Origin: Dehalococcoidia bacterium
GTDB lineage: Bacteria > Chloroflexota > Dehalococcoidia > Dehalococcoidales > RBG-16-60-22
Reading direction: 5' to 3'
NCBI GenBank assembly: GCA_041489355.1
Contig: JBGPRB010000001.1
Span: 1 to 54,952, forward strand
Length of the DNA stretch: 54,952 nt
Below, one piece after another: positions 5,902-54,952 of the stretch. The notes beneath the pieces were generated by a model. It worked only from the letters and a program-made list of their open reading frames with translations, did not search any database and was not told where the DNA came from. The translations under genes were made by a program, and so were the position numbers. Every line of letters begins with the position of its first letter. The stretch's first letter is position 1.

Positions 5902-6900
5902 ATGAGTATGAACTGGACCACCAAGAAGCTATTAATAACCGGCGCCGGGGGTTTTATCGGAAGTCATCTCGTAGAACGTCTGGTTGGGCTTGGAGCGACA
6001 ACCAGGGCTTTTGTCAGGTACAACTCGAGAAATAACTGGGGCTTGCTTGAGCTTTTACCCGGAGACAAACTCAAAGAAATTGAGATAATAGCGGGTGACC
6101 TGAGAGACAGCCAGGCGGTCCGCGACGCCGCCAGGGACGCGGACATGATTTTCCACCTGGGCTCTTTAATTGCCATCCCGTACTCATACGTCCATCCCCG
6201 GGAAGCCATCGAGACGAATATCATGGGGACACTGAATATTTTAATGGCGGCGCGGGAGAACGGGATTGAAAAGGTAATTCACACGTCCACTTCCGAGGTT
6301 TACGGAACGGCTCAATATGTCCCCATAGATGAAAAGCATCCCCTGCAAGGGCAATCGCCGTATTCAGCCAGCAAAACGGGGGCTGATATGATTGCGGAGA
6401 GTTTCTACCGTTCTTTCGATGTTCCGGTAGCCACCATAAGGCCGTTTAATACCTATGGACCACGGCAGTCCGCCCGGGCGGTGATACCAACAATAATTTC
6501 ACAGGCGTTAACCGGAGAACAGGTGCGCCTGGGTTCGCTGCATCCCACACGGGACTATACCTATGTTGACGACGTCGTCGAGGCTTTCATCAAGGTGGCG
6601 GAGTCCCCGAAATCAATAGGAAAAGTCATAAACATCGGGTCGAATTTTGAGATGTCGATAGGCGACATCGCCAAAAAGATATTGTCCATAATGGAAAAAG
6701 ATAATATAGCTATCGTGACCGACGAGAGGCGTATCAGGCCCGAGAAGAGCGAAGTGGAGAGATTGTGGTGCGATAACACCCTGGCAAAGAAAGTACTGGG
6801 ATGGGAGCCCGGGACCAGTTTCGACGCAGGCCTGGGAAAAACCATAAAGTGGATGTCCGATAATATCAACCTGTACAAACCGGAACGCTATAACCTATGA
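5902..6900 (+). CDS. NDP-sugar 4,6-dehydratase-like extended SDR
   Basis: 332 aa. ITGAGGFIGSHL Rossmann motif, TSTSEVYG, SPYSASKTGAD (YxxxK) and RPFNTYGPRQ, typical of the dTDP-glucose/GDP-sugar 4,6-dehydratase family. Confidence 0.8.
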   Translation: MSMNWTTKKLLITGAGGFIGSHLVERLVGLGATTRAFVRYNSRNNWGLLELLPGDKLKEIEIIAGDLRDSQAVRDAARDADMIFHLGSLIAIPYSYVHPREAIETNIMGTLNILMAARENGIEKVIHTSTSEVYGTAQYVPIDEKHPLQGQSPYSASKTGADMIAESFYRSFDVPVATIRPFNTYGPRQSARAVIPTIISQALTGEQVRLGSLHPTRDYTYVDDVVEAFIKVAESPKSIGKVINIGSNFEMSIGDIAKKILSIMEKDNIAIVTDERRIRPEKSEVERLWCDNTLAKKVLGWEPGTSFDAGLGKTIKWMSDNINLYKPERYNL

Positions 6901-46950: not shown

Positions 46951-47038
46951 TGGTGCCGAGGCGGAGATTTGAACTCCGACGAGCTTACGCTCACCACCCC
47001 CTCAAGATGGCGTGTCTACCAGATTCCACCACCTCGGC
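46951..47038 (-). tRNA. tRNA-Leu (anticodon GAG), class II with long variable arm, CCA encoded
   Basis: Reverse complement reads GCCGAGGTGGTGGAATCTGGTAGACACGCCATCTTGAGGGGGTGGTGAGCGTAAGCTCGTCGGAGTTCAAATCTCCGCCTCGGCACCA. Acceptor GCCGAGG/CCTCGGC, anticodon loop TTGAGGG, T-loop TTCAAAT. Confidence 0.9.
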
Positions 47039-47049
47039 GTTTAATAATC

Positions 47050-47125
47050 TGGCAGGAGTGAGAGGGCTCGAACCCCTGACCGGCGGTTTTGGAGACCGCT
47101 GCTCTACCAACTGAGCTACACTCCT
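47050..47125 (-). tRNA. tRNA-Trp (anticodon CCA), CCA encoded
   Basis: Reverse complement reads AGGAGTGTAGCTCAGTTGGTAGAGCAGCGGTCTCCAAAACCGCCGGTCAGGGGTTCGAGCCCTCTCACTCCTGCCA. Acceptor AGGAGTG/CACTCCT, anticodon loop CTCCAAA. Confidence 0.9.
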
Positions 47126-47194: not shown

Positions 47195-47223
47195 TTGCAC
47201 CTCCCCCCTTTTTCTGATATAAT
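47195..47223 (+). promoter_or_regulatory. Candidate extended -10 sigma70 promoter of the pyr operon
   Basis: TTGCAC (47195-47200), 17-nt spacer ending TGa, TATAAT (47218-47223). Confidence 0.55.
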
Positions 47224-47253
47224 CTATTCAAACGCAACAAAAGGAGCTAATTT

Positions 47254-47314
47254 AACCTTTAAGCCAGTCCCGCGAGGCTGGCAAGGGGAGCAACCGAACA
47301 CAGGTAATCCTTAA
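47254..47314 (+). promoter_or_regulatory. PyrR-binding leader RNA (anti-antiterminator/antiterminator region)
   Basis: tttaaGCCAGtcccgcgagGCTGGCaagggga resembles the PyrR-binding loop consensus (..UUUAA..CCAG..GAGAGGCUGG..AAGGG..). GGCTGGCAAG (47277-47286) can pair instead with CTTGCCAGCC (47318-47327) in the terminator left arm. Confidence 0.6.
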
Positions 47315-47345
47315 CCTCTTGCCAGCCGGAAGCAAGAGGTTTTTT
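47315..47345 (+). terminator. Attenuator terminator of the pyr leader
   Basis: Stem cctcttgc (47315-47322) / gcaagagg (47332-47339), followed by TTTTTT (47340-47345). The pyrR ATG follows immediately at 47346. Confidence 0.65.
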
Positions 47346-47945
47346 ATGTCCGCAAAAATAGTCATGACCGTAGAAGACATCCGGCGCACCCTCGCACGCA
47401 TTGCCCACGAAATTATCGAGCGCAATAAGGTCACCGATAATCTGGTGCTTGTCGGCCTGCATACCCGCGGCGTTCCATTAGCAAAACGCCTGGCGGAAAA
47501 TATCGAGCGCTACGAGAAATCGAAACTCATCGTCGGGGCTCTCGACTTCAGCCTGTACCGCGATGACCTCGACCCCTCCGAAGCCAACACCTCCGTCCAG
47601 CGTACGGATATTCCATCCGATATCAACGGCAAGTCTGTGGTGCTCGTCGACGATGTTCTCTACACCGGCCGCAGCATCCGCGCTGCCATGGACGCCCTGA
47701 TTGACCTGGGGCGACCGCGCTCCATTCAATTGGCGGTCCTCATCGACCGCGGCCACCGTGAGATGCCGATACGTGCGGACTACGTCGGCAAGAATATCCC
47801 CAGCGCCCGCCATGAAGATATCCAGGTCCGCCTGGTCGAGACCGATGGCGTTGACGAGGTTGCTATCGTCAGCCAGGCCAATAATAAAACCTCTAACAGC
47901 CAGATGGAAGTCCCGATGAAATCGGGAAAGGAGGAGTTACCATGA
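47346..47945 (+). CDS. pyrR: Bifunctional pyr operon regulator / uracil phosphoribosyltransferase PyrR
   Basis: Start at ATG 47346 ([23 protein letters not shown]). The track start 47319 lies inside the terminator hairpin. PRTase motif [17 protein letters not shown]. About 20-aa C-terminal extension. Confidence 0.9.
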
Positions 47946-49346: not shown

Positions 49347-50666
49347 ATGCCAGATGCTTTGCTTATCCGGGGCGGCCGTATCATTGACCCCTCCCGGGAC
49401 ATGGATAAAACAGGCAACCTGCTTATCAAAGAAGGCAAAATCTCCTGGGTGGGAGACAGCACGCCACCTGATACAGATTACGACGTCCTCGACGCCGGTG
49501 GGCTAATCGTTTGCCCGGGCTTTATAGACCTGCATTGCCACCTCCGCCAGCCGGGTAATGAAGAAAAAGAGACCATCGCCACGGGGACGCTGGCCGCGGC
49601 GCGGGGAGGCTTTACCACCGTTTGCTGTATGCCCAATACCAGCCCGCCCCTGGACAACGAGGCAATGATTAACTATGTTAAAACAATTGCCGCCAAAGAG
49701 GGCGTCGTGCGCGTTTTCCCCATCGGCTGCGTCACGGTGGGCCGTAAAGGGGAGGAACTGGTCGATATGGGCGAGCTTGAGATGGCCGGTGCCATTGCTT
49801 ATAGCGATGACGGCGCTCCGGTCAGTAGCCCGGAAATTATGCGCCAGGCCCTCGAGTACAGCCGCGACTTTAACCGGCCGATTATAGACCACTGTGAGAA
49901 CCTGTTTCTCAGTCAGGGCGGCCAGATAAACGAGGGCGTTGTCTCGCTGGAGCTGGGACTTTGCGGTATACCCGCGGCCGCTGAGGAGCTTATCGTCAAG
50001 CGCGACCTCGAGTTTGCCCGCGAGACCGGCGGGCATGTGCACATCGCCCATGTCAGCACCACAGGCTCGGTAGACCTGATTCGCGCCGCCAAGGAGCAGG
50101 GCGTCCGCGTCACAGCGGAAGTCACCCCCCACCACCTCAACCTGACCGAGGAAGACGTTATAAAATATAAGACCCTCGCCAAAGTCAACCCGCCGTTAAG
50201 GAACAGACAGGACACTATCGCCCTGCTCCGCGCCCTGAACGATGGCGTTATCGATATCGTCGCTACCGACCATGCTCCGCATACCGCCGCCGATAAAAAC
50301 TGCGATTTCACTCAGGCCGCCTTCGGCATCAGCGGGCTGGAGACAGCTCTGGGCAGCCTGGCGGGCTTGATTTTCAAAAGTGAACTCAGCCTGAATACCC
50401 TGATTGCGGCGCTGACCATCGGCCCGGCGCGCGTCCTCGGCTACGAAAAGCTGGGCACGCTGGAAATTGACGCGCCGGCGGATATCTGTATCTTCGACCT
50501 GCATAAAGAATGGGTGGTCGATACGGACAAATTCGCCTCCAGAGGCAAAAATACTCCCCTGGCAGGGCAGACACTTAAAGGTAAGGTCATGGCGACCTTT
50601 TACCTGGGGAACCCGGTGTATATGGATGAATGTTTGAAAATAGAAGTGAGAGCACATCATGGCTAA
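49347..50666 (+). CDS. pyrC: Dihydroorotase
   Basis: 439 aa. GFIDLHCHLRQPG (HxH), HIAHVST, ATDHAPH. Confidence 0.9.
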   Translation: MPDALLIRGGRIIDPSRDMDKTGNLLIKEGKISWVGDSTPPDTDYDVLDAGGLIVCPGFIDLHCHLRQPGNEEKETIATGTLAAARGGFTTVCCMPNTSPPLDNEAMINYVKTIAAKEGVVRVFPIGCVTVGRKGEELVDMGELEMAGAIAYSDDGAPVSSPEIMRQALEYSRDFNRPIIDHCENLFLSQGGQINEGVVSLELGLCGIPAAAEELIVKRDLEFARETGGHVHIAHVSTTGSVDLIRAAKEQGVRVTAEVTPHHLNLTEEDVIKYKTLAKVNPPLRNRQDTIALLRALNDGVIDIVATDHAPHTAADKNCDFTQAAFGISGLETALGSLAGLIFKSELSLNTLIAALTIGPARVLGYEKLGTLEIDAPADICIFDLHKEWVVDTDKFASRGKNTPLAGQTLKGKVMATFYLGNPVYMDECLKIEVRAHHG

Positions 50667-51744
50667 AACAGCTATTTTAGTCCTGGCCGACGGCTCGACT
50701 TACGAGGGTTATGCCTTCGGGGCGGAGACGGATGCCATCGGCGAGGCGGTCTTTAACACGAGCATGGCCGGCTACCAGGAGATGCTTACCGACCCCTCCT
50801 ATTCCGGCCAGATTTTGATACCCACCTACCCGCTCATCGGCAACTACGGCACCAACGACGATGACATTGAATCGAGACAAATCCAAGTGAGGGGCTTTGT
50901 CGTCAGAGAGGAGTGCGACCAGCCCAATCACTACCTTAATAACAAGACCGTCCACGATTACCTGCTAGAGGGCAACATCCCGGGCATCTGGGGCGTGGAT
51001 ACCCGCGCCATTACCCGTCGGCTGCGCTCGGCGGGGGTCATGATGGGCATGATAACATCGTCAAAAACGCCCGCCGAAGCTTTAGAAGCTATCAGGAAAG
51101 CGCCCGACTACGGCTCTATCGACTTCGTCAAAGATGTCACCACACATAAACCTTATAAATGGGAGGGAGACGGCAACGCCAGTTACCACGTCGTGGCGCT
51201 GGACTGCGGCCTGAAATACAATATTCTGAGGTTGCTGGCCAAGCACGGCTGCCATACTAGTGTCGTGCCCTGCACAACGTCGGCGGAGGAAATTCTGAGC
51301 TTAAAGCCGGACGGCATCCTGCTTTCGCCCGGCCCCGGCGACCCCGCTCTGCTGGACTATATCGTTGAGAACATTAAAAAGCTCGTCGGCGAAAAGCCTA
51401 TCATGGGCATCTGCCTGGGCAACCAGCTTATCGCCCACGCTTACGGCGGCAAGACCTTCAAGCTCAAGTTCGGCCACCGCGGCGGCAATCACCCGGTGCG
51501 GGACTTATCGAACGGCCGTATCCATATCACCGCCCAGAACCACGGCTACGCCGTCGACCCCGCCACGATAGGGAAAGAGCTTGAGGTGACTCATATCAAC
51601 CTGAACGACGGTACAGTGGAGGGCCTGCGGCACAAGGAGCTTCCCATCTTCGCCATCCAGTACCACTCGGAGGCGTCCCCCGGCCCGCTGGACAACGTGT
51701 ACCTGTTCCAGCAGTTCGTGGATTCGATTAAGGCAAATTTATGA
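50659..51744 (+). CDS. carA: Carbamoyl-phosphate synthase small (glutaminase) subunit
   Basis: 361 aa. GICLGNQL catalytic Cys, FGHRGGNHPV, QYHSEASPGP. 8-nt overlap with pyrC. Confidence 0.9.
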   Translation: MAKTAILVLADGSTYEGYAFGAETDAIGEAVFNTSMAGYQEMLTDPSYSGQILIPTYPLIGNYGTNDDDIESRQIQVRGFVVREECDQPNHYLNNKTVHDYLLEGNIPGIWGVDTRAITRRLRSAGVMMGMITSSKTPAEALEAIRKAPDYGSIDFVKDVTTHKPYKWEGDGNASYHVVALDCGLKYNILRLLAKHGCHTSVVPCTTSAEEILSLKPDGILLSPGPGDPALLDYIVENIKKLVGEKPIMGICLGNQLIAHAYGGKTFKLKFGHRGGNHPVRDLSNGRIHITAQNHGYAVDPATIGKELEVTHINLNDGTVEGLRHKELPIFAIQYHSEASPGPLDNVYLFQQFVDSIKANL

Positions 51745-51763
51745 CTAAAACAATTTTAAAAGG

Positions 51764-51801
51764 AAACGAATCGAGGCTGGGCACGAGTGGATTCGTTTTT
51801 T
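51764..51801 (+). terminator. Candidate intrinsic terminator after carA
   Basis: Stem aaacgaatc (51764-51772) / gattcgttt (51790-51798) running into a T-tract (to 51801). The loop is 17 nt. Confidence 0.5.
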
Positions 51802-51890
51802 GAGTTATGGTAAGTGATTAGGGTTATGGTAAGTGGATTTGAACTGCCACAGGGGGTTAGTGGAGATGATAAAGGAAAGATGACACACCC

Positions 51891-51984
51891 TGTCATTCTG
51901 AGTGAGCGTGGCGACCGAAGAATCTCGGGGAGGCGTGGCAAGAAAAGCCCTGCCCCGAGACCCTTCGCTACGCTCAGGATGACA
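51891..51984. repeat. Family A palindromic element, copy A2
   Basis: Left arm tgtcattctgagtgagcgtggcgaccgaagaatctcgggg (51891-51930). Right arm ccccgagacccttcgctacgctcaggatgaca (51953-51984). The arms are imperfect reverse complements and share the tgtcatt...gcg/cga...aatc core with A1. Confidence 0.9.
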
Positions 51985-52042
51985 ACAAGAAAAGGGGCTC
52001 AGGGTGACAGGGGAGACTTGGATAGTGTGAGGGGATTAATTC

Positions 52043-52384
52043 ATGGATGAGTACTTTGTCTACATGCTGAGCAATAAATCGCGGATGCTTTATGTGGGCA
52101 TTACCAACGACCTTGAACGTCGAATATACGAACATAAAATGAAACTTGTCCCAGGTTTCACATCACGTTATGGTTTGACCAGTCTTGTCTACTATGAATC
52201 CACAGGCGATGTGCGGGCAGCGATAGAACGGGAAAAAGAAATTAAGGGCTGGGTTAGAAGGAAGAAAACGGCTCTTATACATTCATTTAACCCAGAATGG
52301 AAAGACCTGAGTCTGGAATGGTCTGGCGCACCTGTCATTCTGAAGGAGCCCTTCGGTTACCCTCAGGGTAAACTCCGCGACTGA
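52043..52384 (+). CDS. Small GIY-YIG nuclease-domain protein
   Basis: 113 aa. FVYMLSNKSRMLYVGITNDLERRIYEH...EREKEIKGW is the GIY-YIG/URI core. The last ~17 codons (PVILKEPFGYPQGKLRD) are encoded by repeat A3. Confidence 0.8.
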   Translation: MDEYFVYMLSNKSRMLYVGITNDLERRIYEHKMKLVPGFTSRYGLTSLVYYESTGDVRAAIEREKEIKGWVRRKKTALIHSFNPEWKDLSLEWSGAPVILKEPFGYPQGKLRD

Positions 52385-52455
52385 AGAATCTCGGGGAGGG
52401 GTAGTAAGAAAGGCCCTGCCCCACTCCGATATCCTTCGCTACGCTCAGGATGACA
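52333..52455. repeat. Family A palindromic element, copy A3 (expanded left arm)
   Basis: Begins tgtcattctgaagg...ctgaagaatctcgggg and ends ccccactccgatatccttcgctacgctcaggatgaca. The right arm ending ccttcgctacgctcaggatgaca is shared with A2, whose arm reads cccttcgctacgctcaggatgaca. Confidence 0.9.
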
Positions 52456-52462
52456 AAAAACA

Positions 52463-52579
52463 GGGAGTGCCCGAGAGGGGCGTTAGCCCCTCTCCCATAT
52501 CCCTCCCTCCCGACTATGTCGGGAAGAGGGGGTTCACCCTGAAGGTTCTCCCTGAAGGGACAAAGGGGGTGAGGTAGAG
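52463..52579 (+). repeat. Family B structured repeat, copy B1 (117 bp), directly upstream of an ATG
   Basis: The first 45 nt (gggagtgcccgagaggggcgttagcccctctcccatatccctccc) are identical to B2. Hairpin 1: gagaggggc/gcccctctc (52473-52494). Hairpin 2 has a different inner stem tcccgac/gtcggga (52508-52524). It ends ggggtgaggtagag followed by ATG. Confidence 0.9.
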
Positions 52580-53233
52580 ATGAATAAGGGAGGAAATGTA
52601 ATGCCGAATAAAATGACCGAAAAGCCGGTAAAGACATTTTTAGATGAATTAGCCAGTTCCGCACCTGCTCCGGGTGGCGGCAGCGTGGCCGCCCTTTCCG
52701 GGGCTCTCGGCGCAGCTTTAATAAGCATGATCAGCAATTTAACACTCGGCAAGGAGAAATATGCCGCTGTACAGGATGAAATCACCGCATTACTTAAGAA
52801 GTCCGAACGACTGCGGAAAGAACTTACCGACCTGCTTGAAGAAGATGTCAAGGTTTACACACAACTATCGCAGACAATGAAGATGCCCCGCGACACAGAA
52901 GAGCAAAAGAAGACTCGCGCTAAGGCAATGGACAAGGCACTTAAAGCGGCCACCGATGTGCCGATGCGCGTGGCCGAAGCGTGCGTATCGGTCATGGAGC
53001 TGTGTCTTCCTGCCGCAGAGAAAGGCAATATCAACGCAGTAAGTGACGTCGGCGTGGGTATATTGATGGCCGAGGCGGGACTGCGAAGCGCGGCTCTCAA
53101 TGTCCTCATTAATCTCGGCTGGATAAAAGACGAAGCTTTCGTTAAGGAAAGCCAGAAGAAACTCGATAGCTTACTTAAAGGCAAGCCTTCTTTACGCGAT
53201 GATATTTACGAACTCGTGGCGAGTAAGCTATAG
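52580..53233 (+). CDS. Cyclodeaminase/cyclohydrolase-family protein (FTCD C-terminal domain-like)
   Basis: 217 aa. FLDELASSAPAPGGGSVAALSGALGAALISMISNLTLGK is the hallmark of formiminotetrahydrofolate cyclodeaminase-like proteins. An alternative start is ATG 52601. Confidence 0.75.
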   Translation: MNKGGNVMPNKMTEKPVKTFLDELASSAPAPGGGSVAALSGALGAALISMISNLTLGKEKYAAVQDEITALLKKSERLRKELTDLLEEDVKVYTQLSQTMKMPRDTEEQKKTRAKAMDKALKAATDVPMRVAEACVSVMELCLPAAEKGNINAVSDVGVGILMAEAGLRSAALNVLINLGWIKDEAFVKESQKKLDSLLKGKPSLRDDIYELVASKL

Positions 53234-53255
53234 GATATACAGATTAAAAAACATA

Positions 53256-53345
53256 GGGAGTGCCCGAGAGGGGCGTTAGCCCCTCTCCCATATCCCTCCC
53301 CCTCTCCTGGCAGGAGAGGGGGAACGAGGGGTTGAGGTAGAAAAG
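53256..53345 (+). repeat. Family B structured repeat, copy B2 (90 bp), directly upstream of an ATG
   Basis: Hairpin 1: 53266-53287 (9-bp stem, loop gtta). Hairpin 2: ccccctctcc/ggagaggggg at 53298-53322 (loop tggca). Tail aacgaggggttgaggtagaaaag followed by ATG. Confidence 0.9.
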
Positions 53346-53948
53346 ATGAGTGATAAAGAGAAATACATAAGCGAAAATGCAAAACAAGGCGCAATTCAAT
53401 GTTGGCTAGAAGAACATAGGACATTAAGATCTGTAATTGATTCACACCTTATAACCATGCGGTATTTGGTGATATTTAATATTACTTCTCTAGGAACTAT
53501 TGGTGGATTTATTTTAACGGATATGGAAAGAAACATGTGGTTAGCGTTAATCATTCCAATAATGTCGCCTTTTATTGGATTCCTTGTCTACTTTTATAGT
53601 AAACAAATATCTCAACTTGGGCATTACATAAGAGAAATAATTGCACCAAGACTTCAGGAATTGGTGGAAGACGAGAAAGTGATAGGATGGGAAAGTCACA
53701 CCCGTGAAAAAGAAAAGGAAAGAAACAAGTTCCTACAGTGGTTTTCTATATCTGGCATGAGTATACTTACATTTACCTTAACAAGTGTGTTTGTTTTAAT
53801 ATTTACGGCCAAGCGCACTTTTATCGAAGGTACCGGCTGGCAAATTTCTCTCTGGAGCATTGGATTGGTGTTTACGATAATATTGATCTGGGCATATATA
53901 AATGAGCGTAAGTATTGGTTTAGTAATACGAAGGAGCATAAATCTTGA
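53346..53948 (+). CDS. Hypothetical 4-TM membrane protein (AT-rich gene)
   Basis: 200 aa. Four hydrophobic segments (LVIFNITSLGTIGGFIL, LALIIPIMSPFIGFLVYFY, ISGMSILTFTLTSVFVLIF, LWSIGLVFTIILIWAYI). No recognisable motif. Clearly lower GC than the pyr genes. Confidence 0.5.
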   Translation: MSDKEKYISENAKQGAIQCWLEEHRTLRSVIDSHLITMRYLVIFNITSLGTIGGFILTDMERNMWLALIIPIMSPFIGFLVYFYSKQISQLGHYIREIIAPRLQELVEDEKVIGWESHTREKEKERNKFLQWFSISGMSILTFTLTSVFVLIFTAKRTFIEGTGWQISLWSIGLVFTIILIWAYINERKYWFSNTKEHKS

Positions 53949-53974
53949 CCTATAAACCATCTAAAGTCTTGAAA

Positions 53975-54064
53975 GGGAGTGCCCGAGAGGGGCGGTAGCC
54001 CCTCTCCCATATCCCTCCCCCTCTCCGCAGCGGAGAGGGGGAACGAGGGGGTGAGGTAAAGAAG
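53975..54064 (+). repeat. Family B structured repeat, copy B3 (90 bp), directly upstream of an ATG
   Basis: By hand alignment, 81 of 90 positions are identical to B2, and 5 of the 9 differences fall in the loop of hairpin 2 (gcagc vs tggca). Hairpin 1: 53985-54006. Hairpin 2: 54017-54041. Confidence 0.9.
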
Positions 54065-54952
54065 ATGGATGATAACAAAATGAATAAAGAGACAGAAAAT
54101 CAATTACATGTTCAATTAAATGGGGCTCCTGACGTGGTTATCGGTTGTATCACGAATCTTACGAGAAATTATATTTCCGGGAATTATTACAAAATCCTTA
54201 AGGCTAGCGGTAAACCAGATTTTGAAAATGACAGTAACTATCCAGCTTCTTATTCTGTCAAATTAGTACGCGATAATGTTGATATTAATATAGGTAAAAT
54301 CATCCTCCTTAAGTTGCCACGTGAGCGAACATTGTTCCAGTTTGAAAAGCCCAATACACCAGATTCACCTTTGGGACACTTCCTTGATAGTGTTTTAACA
54401 GAGTTCAAGCACTTAGGATTTATTGACGAAGAAAAGGGAAACACCTTGGAGAAACGAGAGCAAAAAGTATTAATAAAAAAATCCACTGAACTCTTTGATT
54501 CAATGCAATTTCATCCTAAAGTAGTTAAGTCTAGCAAAGCTCTGTTTTCTAATGGTCATTACGCTCAAGCTATATTTGAAGCATTTAAAGCAGTTGAAAA
54601 TTTCGTCCAGGAGAAATCTGGCAGCAAACTATATGGAAAGCAACTCATGGCAATAGTGTTTAACGAAGAAAAGCCAATTATTCAAGTGCCAGAAGGTGGC
54701 TATTTTGATAAGGATGTGCAAGAGGGATTTAAATTCCTTTTCATGGGTGCCTCTCAAGGGATAAGAAATCCAAAAGCACACAAAGACATTGTCCAAAATG
54801 ACCCGTATATAACTCTAGAATACCTTGGATTTGCTAGTTTCTTACTTAAGAGAATCGATTATTGGGAAGCAGGTAAAGCAGTTGAAAATTTCGTCCAGGA
54901 GAAATCTGGCAGCAAACTATATGGAAAGCAACTCATGGCAATAGTGTTTAAC
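54065..54952 (+). CDS. Partial (3-prime open) protein with unknown N-terminal domain and a TIGR02391/Ymh-type C-terminal domain
   Basis: Not in the ORF track because no stop is reached. ATG 54065 opens a 296-codon frame to the window end. The C-terminal part (FHPKVVKSSKALFSNGHYAQAIFEAFKAVENFVQEKSG...GKQLMAIVFN...GFKFLFMGASQGIRNPKAHK...YITLEYLGFASFLLKRID) matches my recollection of the Hypoth_Ymh family. AT-rich. Confidence 0.6.
   Translation, partial: MDDNKMNKETENQLHVQLNGAPDVVIGCITNLTRNYISGNYYKILKASGKPDFENDSNYPASYSVKLVRDNVDINIGKIILLKLPRERTLFQFEKPNTPDSPLGHFLDSVLTEFKHLGFIDEEKGNTLEKREQKVLIKKSTELFDSMQFHPKVVKSSKALFSNGHYAQAIFEAFKAVENFVQEKSGSKLYGKQLMAIVFNEEKPIIQVPEGGYFDKDVQEGFKFLFMGASQGIRNPKAHKDIVQNDPYITLEYLGFASFLLKRIDYWEAGKAVENFVQEKSGSKLYGKQLMAIVFN
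54586..54664 (+). repeat. 79-bp exact direct repeat, copy 1
   Basis: taaagcagttgaaaatttcgtccaggagaaatctggcagcaaactatatggaaagcaactcatggcaatagtgtttaac. An identical copy lies 288 bp downstream. Confidence 0.95.
54874..54952 (+). repeat. 79-bp exact direct repeat, copy 2 (runs to the window end)
   Basis: Identical to 54586-54664. The offset of 288 bp (96 codons) keeps the reading frame. Confidence 0.95.

Follow-up and report, generated by a model that had tools for sequence, protein, structure and literature searches.

What kind of element is repeated between genes inside a pyrimidine operon, and what might it do there? In the window (the whole 54,952-nt stretch of DNA analysed here), three consecutive unrelated genes of one orientation each follow a copy of a hairpin-rich repeat, called B below. 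The host operon of these units is the PyrR-attenuated pyrimidine (pyr) operon, and in a near-identical 80-kb contig three repeat-plus-gene units and a GIY-YIG element sit between carA and carB. We give an even chance to the interpretation that B is a structured intercistronic leader, similar to both REP/BIME elements and PeSLs, which supplies a Shine-Dalgarno (SD) sequence and portable homology in a variable gene slot. The features of the window are collected in Table 1; compared contigs carry L numbers.

Table 1. Features of the window around the B copies
Feature	Position	Strand	Description
Operon control region	47195..47348	+	Promoter and PyrR-binding attenuator, upstream of pyrR
carA	50659..51744	+	Left border of the variable slot
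GIY-YIG element	51888..52459	+	Nuclease gene 52043-52384 between two direct ~125-nt palindromic MITE copies (51888-52012 and 52331-52459)
B1	52463..52579	+	Chimeric copy; ATG at 52580
B1, hairpins 1 and 2	52473-52494; ~52501-52530	+	Hairpin 1; replaced hairpin 2
B1, hairpin 3 and SD	~52533-52573; 52568-52576	+	Extra hairpin 3, predicted to pair with the SD; SD GGTGAGGTA
FTCD_C (cyclodeaminase-like) gene	52580..53233	+	Pfam FTCD_C 3.9e-69; 50% GC
B2	53256..53345	+	Canonical copy; covariance model 116 bits; ATG at 53346
B2 parts	53266-53287; 53297-53323; 53331-53341	+	Hairpin 1; hairpin 2; SD-like tail
"4TM" gene	53346..53948	+	200 aa; 35% GC; no Pfam family above curated cut-off
Relic carB start	53932..53970	+	carB ribosome site, TTG and first 8-9 codons (AGGAGCATAAATCTTGACCTATAAACCATCTAAAGTCTT)
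B3	53975..54064	+	Canonical copy; covariance model 113 bits; ATG at 54065
B3 parts	53985-54006; 54016-54042; 54050-54060	+	Hairpin 1; hairpin 2; SD
Hypoth_Ymh/TIGR02391 (HEPN-like) gene	54065..54877	+	3.6e-30; 36% GC
Assembly loop-back artefact	54878..54952	.	Exact copy of 54590-54664

Structure and setting of the three copies

The three direct copies are real and far exceed chance: three matches to the 22-nt core of hairpin 1 (up to 3 mismatches allowed) lie in the window, where shuffles predict 0.01. Beyond B1-B3 the 55-kb window contains no other copy and no similar purine/pyrimidine hairpin, and no Rfam family was found for B. The earlier note on this DNA had described a structured, oriented repeat supplying a predicted SD to unrelated genes, and the folds, the tail with its ATG and the gene families bear this out. 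As it had counted, B2 and B3 are identical at 81 of 90 positions, five of the nine differences lying at the hairpin 2 apex. The 45-nt head, said to be identical in all copies, is so in B1 and B2, while in B3 the loop of hairpin 1 differs by a single base (GTTA to GGTA). Both hairpins (22 nt and 27 nt) fold as proposed, with minimum free energies of -54.6 to -61.4 kcal/mol and z-scores across the copies of -3.4 to -4.9 on the plus strand and -2.9 to -4.7 on the minus strand. B1 keeps the outer stem and has a different inner stem (TCCCGAC/GTCGGGA), again in agreement with the note, and possesses a third hairpin, extra relative to B2 and B3.

Each copy ends in the tail GGTGAGGTA, 3-6 nt upstream of an ATG. 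In the predicted ensembles GAGGU is unpaired with a probability of 0.42-0.56 in B2 and B3 and 0.24 in B1; sequestration of the SD by C-rich tracts, which the note had raised, is not the predicted ground state of B2 or B3, and the SD is paired only in B1, via the extra hairpin. B1 may not supply the real start of the FTCD_C gene, because a second in-frame ATG at 52601 has a strong SD of its own (AAGGGAGGA, 52586-52594).

B1 begins 4 nt past the right end of the GIY-YIG/MITE element. The label 4TM is the earlier reader's, for a putative transmembrane protein, and the stop of that gene overlaps the TTG of the relic carB start. In the sister contig the Ymh gene is full-length (279 aa) and overlaps the start of carB at its 3' end; the true sequence past the artefact at the window end likewise continues into carB.

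The operon has a sigma-70-like promoter (TTGCAC-17-TATAAT, 47195-47223) and a PyrR attenuator (RF00515, 47252-47348, 49.1 bits, E = 1.7e-5, just below the gathering score of 54). A conserved hairpin and U-run 3' of carA (51761-51807) could, by its predicted fold, end the operon transcript before B. Scans found no alternative promoter for the genes past that hairpin, no promoter-like site in or near any B copy and no intrinsic terminator at B, where the hairpins are followed by CCAUAU and the purine-rich tail. We infer that transcription passes through B, that its hairpins act at the RNA level and that the tail serves as SD.

Canonical copies are confined to the carA-carB gap

In exact-pattern scans, canonical B turned up on just five other contigs, one among genome contigs (a collection of 185,579 species genomes) and four among metagenome contigs. 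All five belong to Dehalococcoidales, all matches lie between carA and carB homologues, and each B stands in sense orientation directly 5' of a different gene. More copies appeared in contigs fetched through carA homologues (L031, L036, L037 and the contig end of L030). At a covariance-model score of at least 63 bits there are 12 distinct canonical or orthologous copies plus the 4TM-leader orthologue in L043-L045, all in sense orientation, ending at an ATG wherever the contig continues, with a different gene after each. Canonical copies number one to three per contig. Assemblies tend to break at B (L030, L036).

The search for further copies that the earlier note had advised returned canonical ones in the carA-carB gap only, in sense orientation and directly 5' of a start codon. 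The generic REP/MITE scatter that the note had set against its own reading does not describe canonical B (one locus, sense only); a diverged subfamily is found in both orientations and at some 3' ends.

The content of the gap varies, with different genes in every fetched related contig whose gap is readable. Across contigs these include TIR-like CAP12/PDC-S35, DUF559, SLFN_AlbA_2, HEPN_Cthe2314 and Ymh genes, small membrane proteins, unknown genes and GIY-YIG elements; nuclease genes occur in most versions of the slot. No integrase or recombinase was found within 10 kb either side (precomputed Pfam families of all genes in L022 and L023) or in the gaps of L029-L052.

Conservation, covariation and possible exchange between copies

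In L043-L052 a homologue of the 4TM gene (71-74% amino acid identity) is the only gene in the gap. The homologue of L044 has a diverged B upstream (5905-6003), in which an A-T pair of hairpin 1 is changed to G-C in a compensatory manner and the hairpin-2 stem is identical around a different 13-nt loop. This pairing indicates vertical constraint, with B2 as the ancestral leader of the 4TM gene, and a reading of B2 plus 4TM as a newly captured cassette gives way to that of an old operon resident.

The covariation that had been anticipated was found: 97% of cells are paired, and in 8 of 23 pairs both partners vary, a result reached by 0 of 500 shuffles, and slid controls all score lower than the true B pairing. 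Most of the compensatory changes separate just two subfamilies, and so represent few independent events. Complementarity is kept in all variants of the hairpin-2 apex (TG-G-CA, GC-A-GC, TGC-GCA, TA-G-TA), which is a perfect palindrome with a spacer of 0-1 nt. Such a palindrome would not be maintained by RNA selection and points to a DNA-level process, for instance template-switch correction or a dyad-symmetric binding site.

From contig to contig, B is 90-99% identical, compared with 72-80% for adjacent GIY-YIG DNA and 86-91% for the 5' coding sequence of carB, and the identity ends exactly at the edges of B; B3 and the L026 copy, for example, share 98.9% over 87 nt between flanks that are unrelated on both sides. 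All four combinations of hairpin-1 loop (GTTA/GGTA) and hairpin-2 apex (TGGC/GCAGC) exist, and B1, L031 and L036 are chimeric. The loop and apex combinations, the chimeras and the B-bounded blocks of identity are compatible with recombination between copies.

Relics of carB and the possibility of cassette capture

The relic carB start, cut off 4 nt upstream of B3, marks a former junction of 4TM and carB. Its junction with GAAAGGGAGTGCC recurs at the end of L030 behind an unrelated gene: ..TCTAAAGT(T)CTT joined to GAAAGGGAGTGCC is identical in the window and L030, the relic sequences themselves having diverged. Serial relic carB starts occur in L024, L029, L031 and L037, and GIY-YIG/MITE elements insert after carB codon ~20, bringing a recoded carB start. 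Recombination is the cause that we infer for the stacking of genes in the slot.

These junctions may also be read as the products of an integron-like capture without IntI, for which B would be the recombination or cleavage site. Units would be joined to a core (TCTAAAGTC) in the first carB codons, the hairpins or palindromes would be recognised by a trans-acting recombinase or by the resident GIY-YIG/DUF559 nucleases, and every event would give carB a fresh 5' end. The junction shared by the window and L030 fits this account, as do the B3-Ymh layout, which is that expected of a Campbell-type insertion of a circle with a carB-start segment, the perfect DNA palindrome of hairpin 2, and the nuclease genes and recoded carB starts just described. 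However, most B copies (B1, B2, L024-L028, L031, L037) have no adjoining carB relic, recombinases are absent within 10 kb either side and attC core sites are absent, and the spacers of hairpin 1 (4 nt) and hairpin 2 (0-1 nt) misfit the core sites of tyrosine recombinases; the common junction could also date from one old event, after which the upstream gene was replaced. We regard such capture as quite unlikely. Distinctly improbable, in our judgement, is a dedicated integrase-less capture slot at B and the carB start that expresses largely defence-type genes from the PyrR-attenuated transcript. Its driver would be resident homing-type nucleases (GIY-YIG, DUF559) or a recombinase in trans and, were it true, the HEPN/Ymh, TIR-like and Schlafen-like genes would be induced at low pyrimidine nucleotides, for example during phage infection.

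The wider family and the possibility of a selfish element

The covariance model also picks up the diverged subfamily upstream of carA, as well as inverted members downstream of carA, of a TIR-like gene and of pyrK. An inverted copy of the hairpin-3 segment of B1, 98% identical, lies 3' of pyrK (L022 15577-15625), where a 49-nt relic of the 3' end of pyrK flanks the B' element. Inverted members carry the same tail, not used as SD, so the SD role may be an exaptation. Because the diverged subfamily occurs inverted at gene 3' ends, the wider B family is, to judge from its sequences, a REP/BIME-like mosaic repeat that is not limited to 5' UTRs. In L029, L030, L032 and L037 several slot genes have leaders that consist of the tail alone (..GGGACAAAGGGGGTGAGGTA..ATG) and differ from head-plus-tail leaders by a clean ~66-nt indel with GGGA at both bounds.

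This indel is what would be expected if B were a purely selfish REP/MITE-like mobile hairpin module, of no benefit to the host, whose 66-nt head inserts site-specifically in an existing conserved cassette leader (GGGA^CAAAGGGGGTGAGG); B would then always lie just upstream of an SD and ATG because the head targets that leader. It could equally be a palindrome deletion between GGGA microhomologies. The two orientations and mosaic combinations of the wider family, the pyrK relic beside B' as an insertion signature, and the high identity between strains, which fits recent spread, all agree with a selfish element, but the head lacks terminal inverted repeats, the fetched loci showed neither a transposase nor a RAYT, and canonical copies are very few and at one locus in two very large collections. 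The persistence of the orthologous B-4TM pairing with compensatory changes argues for constraint instead. A purely selfish B is, in our view, unlikely.

The possibility of a regulatory switch or protein-binding leader

With three G-rich and two C-rich segments capable of alternative pairings, B might also be a regulatory RNA switch or protein-binding leader, either a PyrR-like site or an SD-sequestering element. CCGAGA in the head agrees with the hexaloop CNGNGA of PyrR sites (CCAGAGAGG in the L031 variant), but the GUC/GGC stem that flanks this hexaloop is missing from B. If hairpin 1 opened, its 3' arm (CCUCUCCC) would be able to pair with the SD (GGGUGAGG), and a UCACCC tract is predicted to pair with the SD in B1; however, forcing the head open changes the predicted accessibility of the SD little (0.56 to 0.57 in B2, 0.42 to 0.23 in B3), and the mechanism is impossible for inverted family members. 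We hold a switch of either kind to be very improbable. As a PyrR-binding attenuator B was rejected, since the RF00515 covariance model gave no match to it at E <= 5 or, with a 111-nt query, at E <= 10, and did find the true attenuator (47252-47348).

Comparison with known systems

PeSLs (promoter-early stem-loops) are mobile regulatory cassettes of T4-type phages (Arbiol et al. 2010, PMC2839356; Comeau et al. 2014, PMC4122927). They are rich in polyG/polyC, finish with the SD and start codon of the following gene, and mediate shuffling through recombination (PMC2839356). B is likewise a short repeated intergenic module in a hyperplastic region, among unrelated, mostly unknown ORFs of the same orientation. 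It has stable stem-loops with G tracts followed by C tracts, its 3' end is the predicted SD and start codon of the next gene, repeated between variable ORFs, and its copies are candidate exchange points between otherwise unrelated sequences. The PeSL motif, in contrast, contains a strong sigma-70 promoter, which has no counterpart in or next to any B, and a single hairpin rather than two or three, and it belongs to phages, whereas B lies in a bacterial chromosome, inside a biosynthetic operon. Minicircles and terminator activity are known from PeSLs.

REPs are known to protect the mRNA upstream of them and to dampen transcription. Like REP, BIME and REPIN elements (Nunvar et al. 2010, PMC2817692; Di Nocera et al. 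2013, PMC3733652; Bertels and Rainey 2011, PMC3116915), the B family consists of GC-rich extragenic palindromes of 20-40 nt in mosaic combinations and, taken widely, lies within operons and at 3' ends in both orientations. REPs usually exceed 100 copies per genome, whereas canonical B, in the collections scanned, occurs in a few copies at its one locus and has an SD built in. REPs also carry a GTAG or CGTC tag, while the canonical B head has GGGAGTGCCC before the stem; among the variants, L027 and L037 alone contain GTAG, at a distance of 6-8 nt from the stem. The fetched loci showed no RAYT-like gene.

Integron cassette arrays (Bouvier et al. 2009, PMC2727003) share with the slot apparently promoterless, unrelated genes in one orientation, a structured repeat between them, a fixed chromosomal site, gene content that varies between strains and, as in sedentary chromosomal integrons, a repeat that is homogeneous within the lineage. 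The slot differs in having neither IntI nor attI. Reading the conserved alignment columns by eye, we found no R''(RYYYAAC) or R'(GTTRRRY) attC core motif; GTTGAGG of B2 is a private substitution and misfits the Y at the last position of R'. An attC site is one imperfect hairpin with extrahelical bases and stands 3' of every cassette, whereas B comprises two separate perfect hairpins and stands 5' of each gene: the first slot gene has a repeat before it, and Ymh, the last, runs directly into carB without one. Of the cassette array suggested earlier, the variable array of one-orientation genes stands, and the integron type is rejected (no recombinase within 10 kb, no attC cores, no repeat after Ymh). 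A CRISPR array, defined by 23-50-nt repeats and non-coding spacers of similar size, is rejected too, the repeats here being 90-117 nt long and separated by protein-coding genes of 0.6-0.9 kb. The view that B is not a CRISPR, an attC site or a simple terminator was thus upheld on repeat and spacer sizes, core motifs and the lack of a U-tract terminator at B.

At the ssrA-specific genomic islands of Dehalococcoides, tandem accretion regenerates the targeted gene end (McMurdie et al. 2011, PMC3146451), and defence hotspots are flanked by core genes (PMC10250203, PMC10121019). The slot recalls the former in that one gene end has received insertions in series, with a relic copy of this end left behind each time, and the latter in its variable, partly defence-related content between conserved core genes. 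Its insertions, however, target a protein-coding gene at the 5' end, within an operon, and its units are single genes of 0.2-1 kb without an integrase.

Proposed function and significance

In light of these comparisons, B resembles known intergenic hairpin repeats rather than an integron site. As a structured intercistronic leader, our preferred reading, it would be one subfamily of a mosaic, REP/BIME-like family of GC-rich hairpins in a Dehalococcoidales clade, and in sense orientation would form nearly the entire intercistronic spacer before genes of the carA-carB slot. It would be transcribed together with the pyr operon, and two very stable hairpins (9 bp; 12-17 bp) would form in the mRNA and serve the upstream cistron as exonuclease barrier, partial attenuator and context insulator, while the purine-rich tail (GGGGGTGAGGTA), mostly 6-7 nt (range 1-10) before the ATG, would be the SD of the downstream cistron. 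Because B is near-identical between copies and between strains, it may double as portable homology. Slot genes would be swapped, lost and stacked by recombination with B as the left anchor and the 5' end of carB as the right one, an exchange resembling that of PeSL cassettes in T4-type phages, although this two-anchor model is weakened because the carB 5' end is not homogenised as B is.

For annotation, minus-strand ORF calls across the B repeats are spurious and the window end is an assembly artefact. A variable carA-carB slot, partly of defence genes and marked by B, seems undescribed, limited literature searches having found no published account of it. The slot may be of interest in its own right as a variable micro-hotspot of defence-type and nuclease genes that spans many uncultured Dehalococcoidales and preserves a fossil record of serial insertions, each rebuilding the carB start. 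If our preferred reading is true, a small hairpin repeat would be the standard adaptor by which foreign AT-rich genes are slotted into an essential biosynthetic operon, and expressed from it, while the operon stays intact. The same adaptor would also provide the homology through which strains can go on exchanging the slot, and would thus be the chromosomal equivalent of the PeSL system in phages.

Three structured repeats between carA and carB

The earlier note had placed three copies of a structured repeat, B, before unrelated genes, and all three were found at those positions (see table). The genes encode an FTCD_C protein, a protein without a Pfam family above cut-off (read as 4-TM in that note, and called 4TM here) and a Hypoth_Ymh protein. 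The window contains three occurrences of the 22-nt hairpin-1 core, versus 0.01 expected. Our recount agrees that B2 and B3 are equal at 81 of 90 positions, with five of the nine mismatches in the hairpin-2 apex; the 45-nt head, described as identical in all copies, is so in B1 and B2, but B3 has one loop mismatch. Every copy is closed by the purine-rich tail GGTGAGGTA, a few bases 5' of an ATG, and exact window matches to the tail-only motif (GGGA)CAAAGGGGGTGAGGTA are confined to B copies. Both hairpins are predicted on the plus strand (z-scores -3.4 to -4.9), and the opposite strand folds about equally well. GC content is 62-68% in B, 35-36% in 4TM and Ymh, and 55-57% in the pyr genes.

Because a second in-frame ATG in FTCD_C has a strong Shine-Dalgarno sequence (SD) of its own, the ATG at 52580 supplied by B1 may not be the true start of this gene, whose Pfam domain begins at residue 17. 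The codons following the ATG (MSD.., MDD..) are alike in four genes with no further extension; a shared coding leader was considered, and the likeness was judged to be N-terminal composition. Long minus-strand ORFs running across the B repeats could be mistaken for hypothetical proteins in annotation; they look like artefacts of the GC-rich palindromes.

Positions of the features discussed, in the window and on the contigs compared with it
Feature	Sequence	Position	Strand	Remarks
B1	window	52463-52579	+	direct copy; element length 90-117 nt
B2	window	53256-53345	+	direct copy; element length 90-117 nt
B3	window	53975-54064	+	direct copy; element length 90-117 nt
SD AAGGGAGGA and second ATG of FTCD_C	window	52586-52603		ATG at 52601
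Long ORFs across B repeats	window	52335-52664, 53206-53445, 53696-54103	-	e.g. ..PLLPGEGEGYGRGANAPLGHS..
tRNA-Leu(GAG) and tRNA-Trp(CCA) genes	window	46951-47125	-	adjoin pyr promoter on its upstream side
Sigma-70-like promoter TTGCAC-17-TATAAT and PyrR-binding attenuator with terminator	window	47195-47348		upstream of pyrR; RF00515, 49.1 bits
A/U-rich 12-bp hairpin and U-run	window	51761-51807		directly 3' of carA
GIY-YIG gene flanked on each side by a direct copy of a palindromic MITE (~125 nt)	window	51888-52459		TIR CCTGTCATTCTGAG/CTCAGGGTGACAGG
carB relic	window	53932-53970		3' end of 4TM gene; stops 4 nt 5' of B3
Assembly loop-back (last 75 bases)	window	54878-54952		exact copy of 54590-54664
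B' (diverged B-like element)	L022	15492-15783		inverted; 3' of pyrK, downstream of window
GIY-YIG element	L030	5346-5784		between pyrC and carA
Tail-only leader, (GGGA)CAAAGGGGGTGAGGTA + short spacer + ATG	L025	2418-2436, 2745-2763
Tail-only leader, same form	L029	6125-6152
Tail-only leader, same form	L030	7227-7255
Tail-only leader, same form	L032	9599-9620
Tail-only leader, same form	L037	3449-3473

Operon context

With a near-identical sister contig (L022/L023, 80.6 kb), the operon reads pyrR, pyrB/I, pyrC, carA, [GIY-YIG element, B1-FTCD_C, B2-4TM, B3-Ymh], carB, pyrK. There the Ymh protein has 279 aa, ending in ..DYWEAGKTPNAHQTL, its gene overlaps the carB start at its 3' end, and no repeat lies between the two; the end of the window itself is an assembly loop-back. 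The attenuator upstream of pyrR was missed by the default Rfam scan because its score falls just below the gathering score of 54; at gathering thresholds the scan returned two tRNAs only, and at permissive E-values it gave merely chance miRNA-like hairpin matches over B. Two tRNA genes adjoin the pyr promoter. The hairpin and U-run after carA, kept in three other contigs (L028, L029, L037), could act as a terminator or attenuator that leaks, and would then bear on the putative co-transcription of the slot genes with carA.

B belongs to a variable gene slot

A pattern scan of viral contigs with the generic hairpin GAGAGGGGCNNNNGCCCCTCTCCC matched unrelated phage terminators throughout, and was replaced by longer patterns. 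Exact searches with these found one contig in 185,579 species genomes (a Dehalococcoidaceae MAG) and four metagenome contigs. In five of five, B lies between carA and carB homologues, and the ATG that directly follows it opens a different gene each time: a TIR-like CAP12 protein (L024), a 76-aa ORF (L025), a 70-aa membrane protein (L026, where a degraded B copy then stands 5' of a Ymh paralogue), a HEPN_Cthe2314 protein (L027) and a 232-aa unknown (L028). Contigs fetched through carA homologues added copies in L031, L036 and L037 and at the broken end of L030, and in every readable one the gap is filled and variable, its contents including TIR-like, DUF559, SLFN_AlbA_2 and small unknown genes as well as GIY-YIG elements. 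Among the slot proteins, several have PADLOC matches (Aga_HEPN and PD-Lambda-3_B, PDC-S35, PDC-S50), and the tail-only leader precedes many further slot genes. In a limited literature search we found no description of this slot.

A second repeat, D (~130 nt; hairpins TCCCCCTTT/AAAGGGGGA and TCTCCCTTT/AAAGGGAGA), flanks DUF559 (Vsr-like endonuclease) genes on both sides, sometimes in two or three tandem copies, in the carA-carB gaps of L026, L029, L031, L032, L036 and L037. Its right end is often followed by B or a tail-only leader.

Structure and wider family

A covariance model built from nine B copies was searched over 223 kb of sequence. Canonical or orthologous copies (at least 63 bits; 12 distinct plus the 4TM-leader orthologue) are all in sense orientation and end at an ATG in every case where the contig runs on. 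The model also recovered a diverged type-2 subfamily, with hairpin 1 AAGAGGGGC/GCCCCTCTT and hairpin 2 TCCCCTTCCCC/GGGGAAGGGGA, which is sense before carA (L044, L048) and inverted just 3' of carA (L044), and also 3' of a TIR-like gene (L028, L037) and of pyrK (L022). At the last of these positions, B' lies between the 3' end of pyrK and a 49-nt relic copy of that end (78% identical); the third hairpin of B' shares 98% identity with the extra segment found in B1, and on the strand of the convergent gene a T-run comes after it. No family member lies in the window's first 47 kb.

Of the cells in the model-fitted alignment 97% are paired, and both sides have changed in 8 of 23 pairs, a level reached by none of 500 shuffles and lower in slid controls; most of these changes split the two subfamilies and thus represent few events. 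In hairpin 2, every apex variant is a perfect palindrome (spacer 0-1 nt), and this suggests that a DNA-level process is also at work. G-U cells were not used as strand-specific evidence for RNA over DNA, the U-G cells in the outer helix having come from poorly aligned type-2 linkers. The evidence fits an RNA-level function of B as well as a DNA-level one.

Several known classes of element were compared with B. A PyrR site, raised by a CCGAGA motif and the operon context, was ruled out by the covariance-model result and a missing stem. The earlier note had set aside CRISPR, attC and a simple terminator, and rightly so: B is not a CRISPR array, contains no promoter or terminator consensus sites, and differs from an integron attC site in that no IntI was annotated within 10 kb, core sites are absent, the fold consists of two perfect hairpins, and the repeat stands 5' of genes. 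That note had also allowed that the SD might be sequestered; this is the predicted ground state of B1 but not of the other copies, and ensemble calculations, with the head forced open or not, gave small changes only. A regulatory switch is very improbable.

Conservation and age of the copies

Between contigs, B copies are 90-99% identical (B3 and the L026 copy, for example, 98.9% over 87 nt), as compared with 72-80% for neighbouring GIY-YIG DNA and 86-91% for carB 5' coding sequence. Blocks of identity stop at the edges of B, and the DNA on both flanks is unrelated. All four combinations of hairpin-1 loop and hairpin-2 apex variants exist, and in three chimeras (B1, L031, L036) part of a hairpin is swapped for another module; combinations and chimeras indicate exchange between copies, or recent spread. 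We regard as unlikely the rival reading in which B is a selfish insertion module aimed at the conserved leader.

Homologues of 4TM (71-74% identity) are the sole carA-carB gene in L043-L045 and L046-L052. In L044 a diverged B (69 bits) precedes the homologue: hairpin 1 shows a compensatory A-T to G-C change, hairpin 2 keeps its stem around a 13-nt loop, and the tail is the same; in L048 the tail alone is kept, behind another hairpin with C-rich and G-rich arms. B-4TM is thus an ancestral feature of the operon, and the remaining canonical B copies are paralogues set before later arrivals.

carB relics and the GIY-YIG/MITE element

The 4TM gene ends in a copy of the carB ribosome site together with the TTG and first 8-9 codons. 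The same relic|GAAAGGGAGTGCC junction recurs at the end of L030, behind a 182-aa gene; homology of that gene to 4TM would have made the shared junction simple inheritance, and BLASTP (E = 0.16) showed them not to be homologous. The same GIY-YIG/MITE element as in the window, with or without the gene, lies after carB codon ~20 in L024, L029, L031 and L037, and each time brings a fresh, synonymously recoded RBS and carB codons 1-20, a homing-like signature; up to three tandem starts result. Stop codons of slot ORFs often fall within the carB ribosome site or start (TCTTGA overlapping TTG), and this overlap would allow translational coupling. In L030 the spacer that holds a GIY-YIG element is the one between pyrC and carA, not the one between carA and carB, so targeting extends to further pyr-operon spacers.

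Such relics and resident nucleases bear on whether B could be an integron-like recombination or cleavage site linked to the carB 5' core. No integrase or recombinase was annotated among precomputed Pfam families within 10 kb on either side of the locus or in the fetched gaps, and we consider this reading less probable still than selfish insertion.

A proposed leader and portable homology for the slot

We place about even confidence in B as a REP/BIME-like hairpin module which, in sense orientation, forms a complete intercistronic leader and a portable homology for the slot. Its hairpins would shield or insulate the cistron upstream, its tail would provide the SD for the gene that follows, and its near-identity between copies could allow genes to be swapped and stacked between carA and carB. 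There is a close parallel in the stem-loop cassettes of T4-type phages (PeSLs), which likewise terminate in the SD and start codon of the gene that comes after them (PMC2839356), but B has no promoter. B is real, non-random, structured and REP/BIME/PeSL-like, and it is set in a variable, partly defence-type gene slot within the pyrimidine operon of Dehalococcoidales.
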